Source: Minisyncoccota bacterium (GTDB taxonomy: Bacteria; Patescibacteriota; Microgenomatia; UBA1400; UBA12028). From it: DNA of 64,000 nucleotides. The DNA lies in the NCBI GenBank assembly GCA_016211945.1, contig JACRHV010000006.1, forward strand, positions 146,093 to 210,092. The letters run 5' to 3'. The notes beneath the pieces are model-generated. The model was not told the DNA's origin. It was given only the letters and a program-made list of their open reading frames with translations, and ran no database searches. Of the stretch, positions 3,522-24,164 are shown one piece after another. Numbering within the stretch: the stretch's first letter is position 1; each line of letters opens with the position of its first letter. The position numbers were made by a program, and so were the translations under genes.

Positions 3522-3948
3522 AAACAAACTGTTGCTTGATTTTTTTATATCCGAGATGTTCGTAAAATCCATGCGCTTGTGTACGTGAAACATTGCTAGA
3601 AAGAACGATGATATGAATGTCTTGTCTTTTTGTCCATTCTTCAACACTCTTTATGAGTTGAGACCCTACTCCTTTTCCTTGATATTTATCAAGAACAGCG
3701 AGTCCGTGGAGCTCAACTGATCGTGGAGTTTCCAAAAGGTCGCGAATATATGCATGACAAAAACCAATAATCTTATCATCGTCTTTTGCAATATACAGTA
3801 CATGTGAAACTTGAGAGCAGATGCGTTGAAGTTTTTGTGTAATTTCTTCCAGGGTGTTGGGATATCCCATCATCTCAACGAGGGGTAGCATATCGTATGC
3901 TATTTTTGCATCCGCAAGCGAAATAGAAATATTCATGATATAAATCAT
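3499..3948 (-). CDS. GNAT family N-acetyltransferase
   Basis: Acetyl-CoA binding motif 'HGLAVLDKYQGKGVGSQL' (Q/RxxGxG/A). Confidence 0.7.
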   Translation of the reverse strand: MIYIMNISISLADAKIAYDMLPLVEMMGYPNTLEEITQKLQRICSQVSHVLYIAKDDDKIIGFCHAYIRDLLETPRSVELHGLAVLDKYQGKGVGSQLIKSVEEWTKRQDIHIIVLSSNVSRTQAHGFYEHLGYKKIKQQFVFKKFFET

Positions 3949-3978
3949 ATCCTATCAAATCTTTGCTACAATGTTCCA

Positions 3979-4920
3979 ATGGCGGACAAGAAAAAAGAAA
4001 CACTTGTACTCATCGATGGACATGCATTGGTGTTTCGCGCTTTTCACGCCTTTCCACCACTTACAACGTCCGATGGTGAACTTGTAAATGCAGTCTACGG
4101 CTTTACGCGTATTTTGTTAAAGGTTATTAAAGATCTCCAGCCAAAATATATTGCGGTTGCGTTTGATATGGGAAAGCCGACCTTTCGGCACACAGAGTTT
4201 GTGGGATATAAAGCACAAAGAAAAGAAACACCAAGCGAACTTATCAGTCAGCTTGGTCGTGTGCAGGACATGGTTCGCGCACTCAATATTCCGATTTTTG
4301 GCGTGGAAGGATATGAAGCAGACGATGTGATTGGAACAATTGCCGAAACAATGAAAAACAAGGTGAAGGTGTTGATTGTGACGGGGGATAAGGATGCGTT
4401 TCAACTCGTTCAAGATGATAAGGTAATGGTTTACATGCCCCCGCGCCAGCGTGAGGATGCGAAAGAATACAACGAAAAAGATGTTGAGGAAAAAATGGGA
4501 ATTCCGCCGTCGCTCATTGTAGACTATAAAGCACTTTCCGGTGATCAATCGGACAATATTCCAGGAGTTCAAGGTGTGGGCCCAAAGACAGCGGTGACAT
4601 TATTGAAAACATTTGGATCGGTAGATGGGATATATGAGGCCCTACAAGATCCGTCAAAACTCAATGGTGAACAAAAAACAGTACTTAAAGAAAAACTTGT
4701 GGAGAAACTTGTGAATGGTCACGACTCAGCACGCATGAGTCGGCATCTTGCAACCATTGATCGCACCGTCCCGCTTTCATTTGTTCTGGACAATTGTGCT
4801 GTAAGTGGGTATGACAAACAGAAAACCGTTGAGCTGTTGGACAAACTTGGATTTAAAAGTTTGGTAAATCTTTTGCCTGCTGATGAGTTTGAAAAAGGCG
4901 TTCAGGAGGCGCTTTTTTAA
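3979..4920 (+). CDS. Stand-alone 5'-3' exonuclease (Pol I N-terminal / FEN-like)
   Basis: 'LVLIDGHALVFRAFHA', 'GYKAQR', 'GYEADDVIGT', 'VTGDKDAFQL', and the H3TH region 'SDNIPGVQGVGPKTA'. The ORF ends without a polymerase domain. Confidence 0.85.
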   Translation: MADKKKETLVLIDGHALVFRAFHAFPPLTTSDGELVNAVYGFTRILLKVIKDLQPKYIAVAFDMGKPTFRHTEFVGYKAQRKETPSELISQLGRVQDMVRALNIPIFGVEGYEADDVIGTIAETMKNKVKVLIVTGDKDAFQLVQDDKVMVYMPPRQREDAKEYNEKDVEEKMGIPPSLIVDYKALSGDQSDNIPGVQGVGPKTAVTLLKTFGSVDGIYEALQDPSKLNGEQKTVLKEKLVEKLVNGHDSARMSRHLATIDRTVPLSFVLDNCAVSGYDKQKTVELLDKLGFKSLVNLLPADEFEKGVQEALF

Positions 4921-18274: not shown

Positions 18275-18359
18275 GGAGACGTCGGATAGTGGTCATTCCA
18301 GAGGTTTGCTAAACCTCGGCCTCAAAAGGGCCTCGTGGGTTCGAGTCCCACCGTCTCCG
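18275..18359 (+). tRNA. tRNA-Ser (anticodon GCU), type II
   Basis: Acceptor GGAGACG/CGTCTCC, anticodon loop TTGCTAA, a long variable arm, T-loop TTCGAGT, G73. Confidence 0.8.
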
Positions 18360-18388
18360 CAATCGAAAATTCGGGCTATAATTTCACC

Positions 18389-19159: not shown

Positions 19160-19830
19160 AGTAATCAACACAAACTAACAGAAAATAACAATTATCTTCA
19201 CTAATCTAAATATAAAAGAGCTTATTAACGAGTTGTCTGTCACTTTTCAAATTCATCAGGTACCTTATAGGGTCTTTTCCATTGTGTTTTTATGTATTCT
19301 TTGACCACATCACTGGTCGCACCGTCTGAGACGGATGCCACATAATAACCCGTCGCCCAAAGCACTCCCTCTTTCCATATGTACTGTTTCAATTGTGGAA
19401 GAAATTCTTCTCTAAGTTTTTTTGAGGAAATTCCTTTGAGTAATTGGACTATCTTTGTCGGAGAATATGTGGGAGGAGCATCCACTAACACATGTATGTG
19501 ATCGGGCATGACCTCTTGCGCAATGATTTTAAATTTATAGGCTTTAGCAATTTCTTCAAGTATTTCTTTTAGCCTTACAGGTATCTTCCCTACAAGAACT
19601 TCCCGTCGATATTTAGGAATCCACACAAAATGATATTTAATGTTATGACGAGAATGGGAGCCAGATCGCGTATTATCGCGATAAAAATAATGTAGAACAG
19701 CTTTTAGTGTCTCAAATCTTTGAAGTTGAGTTTCTGAAAGAGCCATAGTCAAATTGTACCAAACGAACCCCGCCCCATTCGGATATTCTTTGTATCCCTT
19801 GCCAATATTAAAATATGTGAATGACAAAGT
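19160..19830 (-). mobile_element. IS200/IS605-family element or remnant (tnpA only; ends not defined)
   Basis: Contains a Y1 HUH transposase gene but no tnpB. It lies 90 nt downstream of a tRNA 3' end. The boundaries are approximate. Confidence 0.4.
19240..19827 (-). CDS. tnpA: IS200-type Y1 (HUH) transposase TnpA
   Basis: 'YHFVWIPKYRR', the HUH motif 'HIHVLV', and the catalytic-Tyr region 'LWATGYYVASVSDG'. The probable true start is the internal Met 'MALSETQ' at about 19746. Confidence 0.85.
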   Translation of the reverse strand: MSFTYFNIGKGYKEYPNGAGFVWYNLTMALSETQLQRFETLKAVLHYFYRDNTRSGSHSRHNIKYHFVWIPKYRREVLVGKIPVRLKEILEEIAKAYKFKIIAQEVMPDHIHVLVDAPPTYSPTKIVQLLKGISSKKLREEFLPQLKQYIWKEGVLWATGYYVASVSDGATSDVVKEYIKTQWKRPYKVPDEFEK

Positions 19831-20327
19831 TTGATACAGAAAGATTATTTCTCTTTACCCATTCTTACTCAGGAAAAGTCATCGCAGAACACATCACGAA
19901 ACGGTGTAAGGATGACACAGCCCGATTCGAAAGAGAGGTCCATCTTTTAGCCAAAGTGTTACGCTTTCGACATGCTGACCTCAAAAAACTTATCATTTAT
20001 CCCATAACTCTTGATGTCTCTATAAAAATTATGAAGCCAGATCTTCTGGCGTTTCTTGAGGTGGAAAGAGAACTTGAATGTATCGCTTCAGAAAAATTGG
20101 ATGAGTATTCAACTGCCAAAGAAGACTACCAACGACAAATGCTCACACCAGCCATTGAACGAGTTGCTGGAAATGCACTTGCGGGAATTGACGATGATTC
20201 TGAGTTTCAGAATAAAATTCAAGAAAAAATACAGGAACATGGGCGAGTATATTATAAAGTGGCTCGAAAGTATCGACTTCCCACAATGCGGATTGTGCCT
20301 TTTCTCTTGAGGCTCATTGCTTGTTAA
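19821..20327 (+). CDS. Hypothetical protein (168 aa)
   Basis: Intact ORF divergent from tnpA and convergent with the helicase gene, with overlapping stops. No recognisable motif. Confidence 0.4.
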   Translation: MTKFDTERLFLFTHSYSGKVIAEHITKRCKDDTARFEREVHLLAKVLRFRHADLKKLIIYPITLDVSIKIMKPDLLAFLEVERELECIASEKLDEYSTAKEDYQRQMLTPAIERVAGNALAGIDDDSEFQNKIQEKIQEHGRVYYKVARKYRLPTMRIVPFLLRLIAC

Positions 20328-22612
20328 ATCGAAAACAGGCTTTGTTGGTTTTCATCAATCTGTTTTCTTTTTGTTACTGGGGTAGTTATTTTGGTGAGTC
20401 CTAATGTTCGATATGTTCGCAGTCTTTTAAAGTACATCAACTTGAGCATTGGCACCTGGTCATCAAAATAATCATGAACTACTGCTATTGTTTTTCCCTC
20501 AAATGGTCGCTGGACTCTGCCCACATATTGAATAAGCTTGCCCTTCCACGAAAAAGGGAATGCAAAAAAGACGTGGGAAACTGCTGGCCAGTCAAAGCCT
20601 TCACCAATTAGCTTGCCAGTTGCGATTAAAAGCTGGAAACGCTCTTGCATCATGCGTTTTGCAATGCGCTCACGATTCTTTTTGGTCATATTTCCGGTAG
20701 CAATAGCAGCATGAATATTTTTTATTTTTTCGCGAATCAAAGTCATGAGAGTTTCACAGTGTTCGATGCGCTCAGTCAGAACAATGCATTTTGCTCCTGT
20801 ATTCAAAACCTCCACAATGTCACTAGCAATTTGGTCATTACGTTTTGCATCAGCAATAAGAAACTTTCCTAACTCTTGAAATTCGTCTATTTTGTGAGCA
20901 ACTGTAAAAGCTGTTTTTCGTGTCATAAGTTGTGTCTCTACAGATGGTGACTCCACATTTTGCGGATTCTCTTTTGTCTGCTCAGCTACCGAAATAATAG
21001 TGTCACTTACGTAAAAGTGCATCAGTTTTTCCAGTTTATCTTTTCGATACGCTGTTGCGGTTAATCCCAATACATATTTGGCAGAAAATTGTTTAACCAC
21101 ATCGCTGAATGTGTTTGCTGGCACGTGATGGCACTCATCAATAATGACCAATCCAAATTGATTTTTGACGTCATCTAAATTCCTGCGCGTTAGTGTCATG
21201 TAGGAAGCAACGGTGACTTTTTTTCCGATTCGCCATTTATTGCCAATGGTACCTAAGTCTTCCTTGGTGAGTTTGAAATAGGTATTGAATCGTCTGATCC
21301 ATTGATCAAGCAATATCGTTGTGTGGACGACAATAAGTGTTTTTTGCTGAAGTTTCTTCATCAGAGCTAATGCCACCATCGTTTTACCAAAACCAGGATG
21401 AGCCTCCAGAATGCTGCGATTTTGTAGCAGGAGAGATTTGAGAATTTTTTGCTGATCCGCGTGCAATTTTAGCGTTGATGGAAATTGCATCTTTTTTGTG
21501 GTGATTCGTTCATCTTTTATTTCAACTGTTAGTTGTTCTTTTTTGATAAAGGCAAGAAGTTTATTTAAAAATCCAAGTGGCAAAGCAACATGATCAGGAA
21601 ATACTTCTAGAGTTTTGATGGACCGAGCGGTCTGCCATGTTGAGTACCCAAATCGTTCTTTGACATAAAATTCAGGATTGGGAAAATTCAGCTCTCTTTT
21701 CAGGAATCGATACAATTTATCTGGTAACCAAAGGCTTGGAATAACAATGTTGGACGAAAGCATGGCATGAACTTCCTGGCCTTGGGTTGTTGAAACTGTT
21801 GGTTCACTTTCTTCTTGAGTTACAATTTCTCTTTTTGTTTCGTCTTTGCTCTGTTCCATTTTATATTCAGCAGAGGTTTCTTTCACTAAATGAGCTGTAA
21901 TTGGGTTTGCCTGATACTGAATTTTTGTTTTCTCGTTCATGCAATGATCAATATCATTCAGGCTCACTCTTTTGATCGACTCAAGGAATTGCCATTGATC
22001 TAGACAAACTTCACCAACAGAATCAATAAACACTGTATTTCCTTCTATCACCGCTTTTCCCTGCAACGGCAAACAAATCAGATTCCCAAACCCTTTTCCG
22101 GTATGTTCATCCTGACTGGGAAACATGCGGTCAAACGTCTTACGAGTGGTTATTCCAGCTTGAAAGAGCAACAGTTTCCCTATTTGTCGTGCTTTGTATG
22201 CAACAATGCGCTGATCAAAAAAGATCCATACATGTCCGCCCTCACCCGAACGGGATCGTTCAATATATGCAGAGATGTTGAGTAGCTTTGCCTGCTCAAT
22301 GATTTTGCGAGCCAATATAAGCCAATCTTTCCCATCAAAATCAATGACGAGAAACGCTGCCGTATTATCAGGAAATAACGGATACACGCCAATCGTTTGA
22401 TTCCCAAGCAAGTGATCACGAATCACATCATCCGTTAATACGTGTGATTTTTGATTCAAGTTATACACTGGGGCGTAACCAGTCTTTTTGTTCATCATGT
22501 CCACCCAATAGTGTGCAAAGACATCGTCGCGAGTGGAAAAAAGCGAACGAAATAGATGTATTTGACTAGGCAAAAATGTGAGCATGTGAGCTCTATTATA
22601 TCTCGAGGTCAA
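20324..22612 (-). CDS. Fusion protein: N-terminal archaeo-eukaryotic-primase-type primase-polymerase (PrimPol) domain and C-terminal DExH SF2 helicase
   Basis: N-terminus: AEP motif I 'FLVIDFDGKD' (DxD) and motif II 'RSGEGGHVWIFF' (sGxGxH). C-terminus: helicase motif I 'HPGFGKTM', motif II 'VIIDECHH', motif III 'GLTATAYR', and motif VI 'QYVGRVQRP'. A single 762-aa ORF. Confidence 0.7.
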   Translation of the reverse strand: MTSRYNRAHMLTFLPSQIHLFRSLFSTRDDVFAHYWVDMMNKKTGYAPVYNLNQKSHVLTDDVIRDHLLGNQTIGVYPLFPDNTAAFLVIDFDGKDWLILARKIIEQAKLLNISAYIERSRSGEGGHVWIFFDQRIVAYKARQIGKLLLFQAGITTRKTFDRMFPSQDEHTGKGFGNLICLPLQGKAVIEGNTVFIDSVGEVCLDQWQFLESIKRVSLNDIDHCMNEKTKIQYQANPITAHLVKETSAEYKMEQSKDETKREIVTQEESEPTVSTTQGQEVHAMLSSNIVIPSLWLPDKLYRFLKRELNFPNPEFYVKERFGYSTWQTARSIKTLEVFPDHVALPLGFLNKLLAFIKKEQLTVEIKDERITTKKMQFPSTLKLHADQQKILKSLLLQNRSILEAHPGFGKTMVALALMKKLQQKTLIVVHTTILLDQWIRRFNTYFKLTKEDLGTIGNKWRIGKKVTVASYMTLTRRNLDDVKNQFGLVIIDECHHVPANTFSDVVKQFSAKYVLGLTATAYRKDKLEKLMHFYVSDTIISVAEQTKENPQNVESPSVETQLMTRKTAFTVAHKIDEFQELGKFLIADAKRNDQIASDIVEVLNTGAKCIVLTERIEHCETLMTLIREKIKNIHAAIATGNMTKKNRERIAKRMMQERFQLLIATGKLIGEGFDWPAVSHVFFAFPFSWKGKLIQYVGRVQRPFEGKTIAVVHDYFDDQVPMLKLMYFKRLRTYRTLGLTKITTPVTKRKQIDENQQSLFSI

Positions 22613-22691
22613 AATAGCTACTTAATCAGTTCGAGTAGGCTGTCCAAATGGTGAAGGATTGGATTCAGCAAAATTCACTATGTTTTTGCAG

Positions 22692-23897
22692 CTAAGCAAG
22701 CTTAATTTCATCTGGAATGAACGTGAGTTTAGTTTTAATGAAGTCCAACATCGTATTAAAAGTTCCTTCTTCCTGCGGAGAGATATTCAGACTGTAAAAG
22801 GTTGTTTTGCCTACTTCTCTTCTGTTAACAATTTTTTGGTCAGTCGCTTGCTGGAGGTAGGTGACGAATGTTTGGCGAGCCATTTTGCCGTTAACATTTT
22901 TGAAAAGATTTTTAAACTGGACTTCATGTTTTTTAATCAGGGGTTTGCAGATACGAGTGATCTGCTCATCGGTGTTCTGACTATCCAGAAATGCCTTTCG
23001 TTTTACTTCAAGGCTTGTTTTCACTACTGACAAGATGGATAAAGCAAAGGCTTCCTGAAAAAATCCCACAAAATGATTCAAGTTCTTTCGTTCCAAAGAA
23101 AACAATAAGTACTTATAGTACCGTGCTTTTTCTTTATGATAGTAATAGGAGGTACTGTACAGATTTTTTTTGTTCACTCCTAATGAACGAAGAAAAATGT
23201 GTTCGAGAATTCTTGATACTCGTTTATTGCCATTAGTGAAGGGATGGAGGGCATATAAAGCAGTATGAAAAATGCCAATACTAGTAATAGCTCTATTATT
23301 TTGAATCCAAATAACGAGCTCTTGTACACCAGTCTCGATTTCATGATAAGGTGCTGGTTTATACTCGCCCACACGAATATTGTCATTGTCTCGCCATTTT
23401 CCTGATTTATAGACATCGAAATGTGGTAAGTGCGTTTGAAACACATCCAAACCTTGGGTTAATTTTTGATGAAGCTGCAAAATAAAGTCTGGAGTAACTT
23501 CATCAATCTGAATCTCTTGATATTCTCGAAAGGTTTTGGCAATGTTAAAGAATTCCAGTTTTTCATAATCCTTCTGCAATAGCTTCTTTCCCTTTTTCAA
23601 CTTACCACTGATAAACGAATAGTCTTCATTTTTGAGTAAAAAGTCATATACATCCTGGGCTTCTTGAAGCGTTAATGTCGAGTTTTCGGCTTTTGAGATC
23701 GCAAACGAAGCCAACAGTTCATTTTTGCTCAGTAGATTCTTTTCAATATCTGGATCTAAAAAGAGCTGTTCATATTGGTTTAAATCCCTGTCTAAATCAA
23801 GCAATTCCTCATTGGAGAATGGTAAAAGACTTGGGGTTAGGATCAATTGATTCAGAAAAGGGCTGGTGAAGGGGTTATTGGTAGTAATTGTGGTCAT
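22692..23897 (-). CDS. Fic/Doc family protein (Doc-like 'NGNKR' variant of the Fic motif)
   Basis: Core motif 'HPFTNGNKRVSR', with HxFx(D/N)GN(G/K)R and a Lys at the second Gly position as in Doc. It has extended N- and C-terminal regions and sits on the same strand 80 nt upstream of the PrimPol-helicase gene. Confidence 0.8.
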   Translation of the reverse strand: MTTITTNNPFTSPFLNQLILTPSLLPFSNEELLDLDRDLNQYEQLFLDPDIEKNLLSKNELLASFAISKAENSTLTLQEAQDVYDFLLKNEDYSFISGKLKKGKKLLQKDYEKLEFFNIAKTFREYQEIQIDEVTPDFILQLHQKLTQGLDVFQTHLPHFDVYKSGKWRDNDNIRVGEYKPAPYHEIETGVQELVIWIQNNRAITSIGIFHTALYALHPFTNGNKRVSRILEHIFLRSLGVNKKNLYSTSYYYHKEKARYYKYLLFSLERKNLNHFVGFFQEAFALSILSVVKTSLEVKRKAFLDSQNTDEQITRICKPLIKKHEVQFKNLFKNVNGKMARQTFVTYLQQATDQKIVNRREVGKTTFYSLNISPQEEGTFNTMLDFIKTKLTFIPDEIKLA

Positions 23898-23935
23898 AAG
23901 ATTAGTCTAATTTCAGTCTAATGATTAGTCTGAAT
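23898..23935 (-). promoter_or_regulatory. Triple operator-like repeat abutting the fic start codon
   Basis: On the coding strand, AGACTAAT / TAGACTGA / TAGACTAAT recur with about 11-bp periodicity (plus strand: ATTAGTCTAA, AGTCTAA, ATTAGTCTGA) within 40 nt upstream of the fic ATG. Confidence 0.35.
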
Positions 23936-24164
23936 TATAGTCAACAACTGATCCAGTGTCAATTTTTTTTCAGGTCAAGTAGCCGGTGCATACAAATTTT
24001 CTTTATTGATACCCTTTAGCTTGTAAAGTAAATAATCTGGCCGTTTCCAATGTGTATGAGTTATCTTCAGTAGGTTACGACAGGTCTTACATCCGGAATG
24101 TAGATATGCTCCGTTGTCTCCTGTAAAATAGTTCTAACGTTGTTCACAACGTTCCGCCATTACT

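Follow-up and report, generated by a model that had tools for sequence, protein, structure and literature searches.

What does a gene of the Fic family do directly upstream of a gene that joins a polymerase domain to a helicase-like domain, and do the two act together? We asked this of a locus in the genome of a candidate phyla radiation (CPR) bacterium, within a 64-kb stretch of DNA that is called the window here. An earlier model reading, made from the sequence alone with no database searches, had described two minus-strand open reading frames (ORFs) of 401 and 762 aa, and the present report is a computational follow-up of the same window. Both ORFs were recovered as described, and the gap between them measures 79 nt. 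The sequence-only reading had taken the fusion of an archaeo-eukaryotic primase (AEP) with a DExH helicase of superfamily 2 (SF2) for an undescribed arrangement. We found instead that this is the already described and biochemically characterised architecture of the enhancer of insertion sequence (IS) excision (IEE) of Escherichia coli, known also from the Pfam family PF22548 and from the PrimPol model of PADLOC. Judged from its sequence, the large protein belongs to the IEE family, in which a Z1568-like AEP polymerase is joined to an SF2 DExH ATPase, and it is a divergent new member of that family in a CPR bacterium. The juxtaposition with Fic is one case of a common but optional pattern, in which an IEE-like gene stands at the 3' end of a slot for interchangeable toxin or abortive-infection genes. 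The features of the two genes are as follows.

20324..22612, minus strand: IEE-family gene with an AEP (PrimPol) domain, a conserved linker and an SF2 DExH ATPase, 762 aa from a TTG start
21944..22564, minus strand: AEP domain, residues 17-223 (PF22548 AEP-TOTE, 7.5e-66)
20507..21472, minus strand: SF2 ATPase core, residues 381-702 (ResIII, 4.7e-27; Helicase_C, 3.3e-13)
22613..22691, minus strand: spacer between the Fic and IEE-like genes, 79 nt, or 106 nt with the ATG at 22585
22692..23897, minus strand: Fic-family gene, 401 aa, ATG start (Pfam Fic, 6.1e-15)
23211..23246, minus strand: Fic active-site motif HPFTNGNKRVSR, residues 218-229
23934..23962, minus strand: promoter-like site TTGACA-17 nt-TATAAT, 12/12 matches, about 37 nt 5' of the Fic start codon

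The spacer has two lengths because the IEE-like gene starts either at the TTG or, in the gene callers' version, at the ATG at 22585, which gives a protein of 753 aa.

Identity of the large protein

The family assignment is carried by a full-length comparison with the IEE of E. coli O157, for which we used the product of the iee gene ECs_1305 (Z1568) from the E. coli Sakai chromosome. The two proteins are 31% identical over 750 aa (BLASTP, E 2e-128), and the match is colinear, including the linker between the domains (residues 17-738 of the window protein against 50-774 of IEE). Both have the order AEP, linker, SF2 and fall into the same length class (786 aa in E. coli, 762 aa here), and the Pfam set of E. 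coli IEE is that of the window protein (PF22548, ResIII and Helicase_C), with PF22548 matching IEE at 1.7e-98. The 786-aa E. coli protein has been described as an N-terminal AEP of the 'Z1568-like family' followed by a C-terminal SF2 DEAH domain (IEE paper).

The motifs named in the sequence-only reading are all present, and the profile searches listed above place them in the expected families. In the AEP domain these are FLVIDFD (D91, D93), RSGEGGHVWIFF (H127) and, in addition, FDRMFP (D161); all three motifs of the Z1568-like type are present, DxD as motif A, sxH as motif B and hD as motif C. The SF2 helicase set is complete as well, with GFGKT as motif I (K410), DECHH as motif II (492-496), TAT as motif III (518-520) and QYVGRVQR, of the form QxxGRxxR, as motif VI (695-702). 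When the window protein is aligned with E. coli IEE and with homologues of six phyla, the counterparts of the residues mapped in IEE (Y128, D142, D144, S171, G176, H178, D216, K451 and the arginine of motif VI) are invariant; in the numbering of the window protein, the invariant residues are Y77, D91, D93, S120, G125, H127, D161, K410, DECH 492-495 and R699. It is worth mentioning that Y77, in the context IGVYPL, aligns with the sugar-selecting Y128 of IEE (VGMYPL), a position tied to the preference for dNTPs. The AEP motifs, the tyrosine, the SF2 ATPase and full-length colinearity, which together define the family at the sequence level, are thus all found in the window protein.

IEE promotes, in a manner that depends on the transposase, the excision of elements of the IS3, IS1 and IS30 families, and it has homologues in many bacteria (PMC9943667). 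The enzyme is a dNTP-preferring polymerase with microhomology-mediated end-joining (MMEJ) activity, and its helicase-like domain, a DNA-dependent ATPase without unwinding activity, is required for bringing two 3' ends into synapsis (PMC9943667). Since the catalytic residues are all conserved, IEE-type end joining is the best-supported mechanism for the window protein. IEE is one of few bacterial end-joining polymerases with a known role in genome plasticity, and the present finding extends its family into the CPR, or Patescibacteria. It also corrects the annotations that such proteins typically carry, which are "DEAD/DEAH box helicase" and "Type III restriction enzyme, res subunit".

The locus might alternatively represent another helicase-based system, namely the Res subunit of a Type III restriction-modification (R-M) enzyme, a TOTE system or a CRISPR-associated PrimPol (CAPP). 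The ResIII match, the Pfam name 'AEP-TOTE' and the matches of the PADLOC and NCBIfam models for CRISPR-associated PrimPol to the N-terminus are in favour of this, and the nearest solved structures are an archaeal XPB/Rad25 for the ATPase (3e-22) and the CAPP PrimPol 7nqd/7nqf for residues 16-224 (3e-14). The PADLOC PrimPol model, listed as CRISPR-Cas-associated, matches the window protein at 1.2e-54 and E. coli IEE at 2.5e-147 over its entire length. However, the NCBIfam model for CAPP (NF040561) gives 116.5 bits against a cut-off of 200 bits, and over the full length IEE is the best match. Within about 3 kb the genes called are Fic, a gene for a 168-aa protein, IS200 TnpA, GNAT, deaminase, SET and NusA, with the YdeI/OmdA ORF covered by a scan of its own; a methyltransferase, TPR-CSD, TBP or cas gene is not among them, and no CRISPR-like repeat array is present in the whole window. 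We find an origin in any of these systems scarcely credible.

Each of the three was also considered by itself. CAPP shares with the window protein an AEP domain of the same Pfam family, but the solved chains from Marinitoga piezophila (7NQD/7NQF) are PrimPol domains of about 220 aa without an SF2 ATPase; membership failed, with no cas-family Pfam match among the neighbours and no spaced direct repeats in the window. TOTE stands for 'TPR, OB, TBP, Effector' conflict systems (Aravind, Iyer and Burroughs 2022, cited in PMC12458937), and the likeness lies in the AEP domain family, which Pfam named after them; neither a TPR-OB (cold-shock) fusion nor a TBP homologue was found among the genes within about 3 kb, and this assignment was rejected. 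The Type III Res subunit was rejected on the AEP N-terminus, on a C-terminus just past the helicase core and on the lack of a methyltransferase within about 3 kb.

The Fic protein and its motif

The Fic protein has an architecture like that of SoFic from Shewanella oneidensis, with N-terminal helices, the Fic core and a C-terminal winged helix. A match to the PADLOC SoFic model extends over residues 35-368 (1.8e-30), and phmmer aligns residues 205-365 to SoFic chains. For the AlphaFold2 model (mean pLDDT confidence score 76), the best Foldseek matches are 4rgl, 7cb8, 7xux and SoFic 3eqx, with 3zcn and 3zec as further SoFic matches, while the C-terminus matches winged-helix repressors of the CadC/SmtB/MarR type. 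Both proteins have a glutamate at the site of the class II inhibitory motif (E71 here, E73 in SoFic). The two differ in the active-site motif, which is HPFxDGNGRxxR in SoFic and HPFTNGNKRVSR here, and in the inhibitory motif, (S/T)xxxE(G/N) as compared to ISKAEN; in addition, the NCBIfam SoFic equivalog gives 35 bits against a cut-off of 550 bits, and the spacer of 79-106 nt has no room for a small downstream antitoxin ORF like that of SoFic (AS1). SoFic-type proteins have been described as toxins that act alone in anti-phage defence, as a single-gene system.

By sequence, the window Fic belongs to a CPR-specific clade, which is tight (397-406 aa); where a source is named, the members come mostly from Levy- and Daviesbacteria. 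All of 20 homologues with 62-93% identity have the motif HPFxNGNKRxxR unchanged. The lysine that the sequence-only reading had noted as Doc-like is indeed there: N222 replaces the consensus Asp/Glu, and K225 replaces the second Gly. The AMPylation-type motif HxFx(D/E)GNGRxxR is thus departed from at two positions, and the enzyme may carry out Doc-like phosphorylation or another nucleotide transfer. The segment ISKAEN (67-72, with E71) is also invariant in the clade and keeps the Glu-Asn of the inhibitory motif, with Ile in the place of Ser/Thr. E71 is a probable inhibitory glutamate that would keep the Fic off, although the confidence of the model over this candidate segment is low (pLDDT below 50 for residues 45-79).

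The lysine in the Fic motif of Doc goes with phosphorylation in place of AMPylation. The window Fic shares this Lys, in the form NKR, with Doc of phage P1, but it has 401 aa with extra N- and C-terminal domains, compared with 122 positions in the Doc model. An identity with Doc was rejected on this length, on the score of the Doc model TIGR01550 (17.8 bits against a cut-off of 38.65) and on the lack of a Phd-type antitoxin gene 5' of the window Fic, where the genes are divergent YdeI and GNAT genes.

The islets in which close Fic homologues lie (L089 3195-5875, L091 4924-5803 and a JGI contig) hold a pair of bAvd and reverse transcriptase of the diversity-generating retroelement (DGR) type and pairs of DUF6922 with AbiEii. 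The same islets contain several AAA_14/DUF4143 genes, AlbA_2 and serine recombinases, and they look mobile or defence-type.

Pairing of Fic and IEE-like genes

The closest relatives of the two genes are not paired. The four closest Fic homologues that could be placed (93, 78, 74 and 64% identity) all lack an IEE-like neighbour and are found next to serine recombinases, DDE transposases, AbiEii, a DGR reverse transcriptase and AAA_14 genes. In turn, the closest IEE-like homologues (62-64% identity) have no upstream Fic; in its place lies either AAA_14/DUF4143, in divergent orientation, or an unknown gene of 244 aa. The explanation towards which we lean, and which we hold to be reasonably probable, is that Fic and the IEE-like gene are independent modules that share a mobile islet and are co-transcribed here, the IEE-like enzyme having the role known from E. 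coli and the Fic being a self-contained toxin or defence gene.

On this explanation, the ATPase half of the IEE-like protein would bind DNA, hydrolyse ATP in a DNA-dependent manner without classical unwinding and hold two 3' ends together, and the AEP half would extend the held ends from short microhomologies with dNTPs, Tyr77 being at the sugar-selecting position. Breaks that transposases or other mobile DNA introduce would be joined in this way, leading to IS excision and deletions. The Fic would be a SoFic-like enzyme of the toxin or defence type, separate from the IEE-like protein and mobile by horizontal transfer, and both genes would have come to lie next to each other in a small stretch of accessory DNA near tRNA-Ser and IS200. 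Co-transcription is plausible because a sigma-70 consensus lies 5' of Fic and no terminator separates the genes: no terminator-like hairpin or site was found between them on the minus strand, and the promoter-like site, identified as a consensus match only, is the sole perfect one among 14 sites in the scanned region, a total that does not exceed the level in shuffled sequence. The two genes are probably co-transcribed from this consensus promoter.

We compared the neighbourhoods of related genes in two independent samples of 80 loci each, one from genomes and one from metagenomes, with our own ORF calls; the genome sample comprises 82 loci, of which 78 were fetched out of 80 and four had been found earlier. 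Among the 52 co-directional upstream genes of the genome sample there were nine AbiEii, seven Fic and three AlbA_2/HATPase_c_4 genes, and one each of RhuM, HipA, DUF1016 and HepT. The 74 downstream genes were mostly housekeeping, with one Fic and no AbiEii. AbiEi antitoxins and some HsdR genes were present at positions -2 and -3. The metagenome sample repeats the pattern, with Fic at 9/65 upstream and 1/69 downstream. The sequence-only reading had suggested a search for pairs of Fic with a PrimPol-helicase in other genomes; such pairs do recur, in about 12% of loci, yet the pairing is optional.

Several of these results weigh against two unrelated modules. Fic and AbiEii together account for 16/52 upstream but only 1/74 downstream genes in the genome sample (Fisher p = 1.7e-6), and pooled over both samples Fic is found at 17/143 upstream against 2/143 downstream positions (about 12% vs 1%, p = 4.9e-4). 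The gaps between Fic or another toxin gene and the IEE-like gene are often only 0-100 nt, and several Fic lineages occupy position -1. Polarised co-directional toxin genes, short gaps and the recruitment of several lineages are also what functional coupling would produce. The enzymatic activities, for their part, are inferred for the window protein from about 31% identity, and the 64-kb window yielded no element of the IS3, IS1 or IS30 type, a single copy of the IS200 (HUH) transposase representing the sole IS found. A phmmer search of the window with IS600 and IS66 transposases and the SpLE1 integrase gave no match, these being distant seeds of low sensitivity. In E. coli, IS3-family (IS629-like) elements co-occur in 94.75% of the IEE-positive assemblies. 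With only an HUH-type IS200 in the window, the E. coli role is not simply transferable.

The Fic partners of IEE-like genes identified by a motif scan all have the canonical HPFxDGNGRxxR, those of the genome sample also have (S/T)xxIEG, and they fall into at least two length classes. These partners are of other lineages than the window Fic, which represents a third one. Fic has thus been placed 5' of IEE-like genes repeatedly and independently.

These data bear on a proposal of the sequence-only reading that the two proteins form a conflict system. In this rival explanation the IEE-like enzyme would be the DNA-sensing or DNA-synthesising part, acting on invading or transposing DNA, and the upstream gene would supply a cell-shutting effector or back-up. 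In the back-up variant it would fire once the IEE-like protein is inhibited. The upstream slot is taken by Fic here and by AbiEii, HipA, RhuM, DUF1016 or AlbA_2 elsewhere; the proposed analogy is the PrrC anticodon nuclease, which is held by the EcoprrI restriction enzyme. The part of the proposal that stands is the recurrence of Fic 5' of IEE-like genes. In agreement with coupling, the co-directional enrichment of toxin genes at position -1 is polar in two independent samples, the intergenic gaps are short, at least three Fic lineages have been recruited to the same position, and a moranbacterial IEE-like homologue of only 36% identity has a Fic gene 3 nt upstream. The consensus promoter 5' of Fic with no terminator between the genes also fits, as does the AEP domain, which takes its Pfam name from a conflict system and is covered by the CRISPR-Cas-associated PrimPol model of PADLOC.

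Against the proposal, the recurring partners are of other Fic lineages and the closest relatives of both window genes are unpaired. Most loci have no such partner, and in about one third there is no upstream gene of the same orientation within 350 nt. E. coli IEE lacks a toxin-like gene upstream (5' of iee lie a DUF3987 gene and a small unknown gene, as compared to Fic in the window), and its described activity needs a transposase, with no toxin partner mentioned. Moreover, SoFic and AbiEi/AbiEii are self-contained systems, and the same polarity would be expected if small mobile islets simply have an IEE-like gene at one of their ends. We therefore consider a two-gene conflict module possible but rather unlikely.

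A wider form of this idea is that IEE-family genes might be the constant 3' part of a widespread cassette, with a 5' slot filled by Fic, AbiEi/AbiEii, HipA, RhuM, DUF1016, AlbA_2, NYN or, in CPR bacteria, several families without a known function, and that IS excision might be one face of an anti-mobile-DNA system. This is a speculative proposal, which we put forward as a minority view. If it were true, a polymerase/ATPase that senses DNA ends would be functionally linked to an effector that arrests the cell, and the pair of HPFxNGNKR Fic and IEE-like protein in the window would be the CPR version; co-expression with the upstream Fic or AbiEii would then give a handle on IEE outside the IS629-rich E. 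coli. If the polarity reflects function and not island structure, IEE would be recast as one component of a modular system for defence or conflict. No description of the polar toxin-IEE association was found in the accessible literature, a coverage outside which the primary TOTE review lies. Beyond the family assignment, the interest of the locus lies in this association and in the unusual Fic motif.

Type I R-M operons embed toxin-type genes such as Fic, AbiEii, RhuM, DUF1016 and HipA, with PrrC-EcoprrI as the studied case. The likeness to the loci described here is that the same gene repertoire is found just 5' of an SF2/ResIII motor gene, and HsdR genes lie two to three genes 5' of several IEE-like loci. 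The difference is that the motor in the window carries a polymerase and not a nuclease, and that the unit has no methyltransferase or specificity subunit.

Surroundings of the locus and spread of IEE-like genes

The neighbours that the sequence-only reading had named (an IS200 tnpA, a tRNA, YdeI, GNAT, deaminase and SET genes) were found as it had said. YdeI/OmdA, GNAT, cytidine deaminase and SET genes are located on the far side of Fic, the YdeI and GNAT genes being divergent. The other side holds the following features.

19821..20327, plus strand: gene for a conserved, all-helical hypothetical protein of 168 aa, convergent with the IEE-like gene, whose stop it overlaps by 4 nt
19240..19827, minus strand: IS200-type Y1 (HUH) transposase gene (PF01797, 3.2e-40); probable start at about 19746, giving 168 aa
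19064..19151, plus strand: tRNA-Ser with predicted anticodon ACT, bordering the accessory stretch (ARAGORN; Rfam tRNA, 57.5 bits)
18275..18360: tRNA-Ser(GCT) (Rfam tRNA, 53.7 bits)

In plasmids and integrative elements, fusions of an AEP with a helicase are typical replicases. The sequence-only reading had offered another hypothesis, that the pair is what remains of the primase-helicase module by which a now decayed integrative element initiated its replication, Fic being the addiction toxin. The type of fusion, the position beside tRNA-Ser genes and IS200, the slightly lower GC content across 18-25 kb (0.37-0.40 vs 0.42-0.48 on the flanks) and the presence of integrases or relaxases near some relatives are compatible with it. 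However, the helicase is of SF2, XPB/ResIII-like, and not of the SF3/D5 or DnaB type, and the characterised member of the family works in end joining without unwinding DNA. No integrase was detected in the window with the one seed tried. A direct repeat of the tRNA 3' end, which would delimit an island, was absent, since neither such repeats nor any repeat of at least 14 nt flank 17.5-26.5 kb, where only short matches at chance level occur. On the small plasmid pDSJ06, the one plasmid examined for this and one of the 96 with a full-length copy (see below), the plasmid's own RepA adjoins its IEE-like gene. In 50,697 phage genomes there was no full-length IEE-like gene, with matches to the helicase half only. 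A replication module is thus very improbable.

IEE-like genes are widespread in bacteria. We scored more than 3,300 homologues, of which the best 100 or so are 45-65% identical to the window protein and, where a source name is given, come from Patescibacteria. At least 592 loci were found in species-representative genomes of Bacteroidota, Acidobacteriota, Bacillota, Pseudomonadota, Planctomycetota and others, 541 in metagenomes by a scan with the family alignment, and full-length copies are carried on 96 plasmids, including large ones. The host of the characterised IEE belongs to the Enterobacteriaceae, that of the window protein to the CPR; E. coli iee likewise lies among IS elements in accessory DNA.

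Several IEE-like proteins are longer than the one in the window. Many Bacteroidota variants have about 990-1130 aa (for example, in loci L017 4989-7973, L035 5001-8390 and L057 1556-4903), with a C-terminal extension of 280-400 aa that has no Pfam match, and a 954-aa variant from an Acidobacteriota metagenome-assembled genome (MAG; L069 4797-7661) has a C-terminal NOV_C domain. In a further CPR locus (L097 6259-9619), toxin-antitoxin genes (BrnT/CopG, Phd/PIN, RHH/PIN and PemK) stand in a row behind an IEE-like gene of 50% identity. With a tyrosine integrase upstream and a relaxase-like gene downstream, the gene content suggests an integrative mobilisable element.

The 168-aa protein at 19821..20327 has 69 homologues, none with recorded Pfam domains, and the few named ones are from CPR bacteria (Pacebacteria and Roizmanbacteria). 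An identical protein is annotated as HZA34_03510 in a Candidatus Pacebacteria MAG, which is probably the genome that the window comes from. Its AlphaFold2 model is all-helical (pLDDT 87), and the protein gave no Pfam, no PADLOC and no significant fold match in the PDB. A homologue of 31% identity lies directly 5' of, and co-directional with, an IEE-like gene in another locus (L107 3383-3949). Two other small families recur next to CPR IEE-like genes, neither with a Pfam or PADLOC match: one of 240-245 aa, just 5' or just 3', and one of 166 aa that overlaps their 3' end (for the two families together, L001 8262-8984; L003 5261-5995; L101/L102 3234-3968; L103 2199-2942; L093/L095 6189-6689; L008 at about 3824-4282).

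A serine tRNA with A34 is unusual in bacteria. The predicted tRNA-Ser(ACT) has the anticodon loop TTACTAA and is located 0.8 kb from the normal tRNA-Ser(GCT), both being solid Rfam matches. Three more dips in GC content, down to 0.35, are present elsewhere in the window, at 31-33, 51-53 and 58-60 kb.

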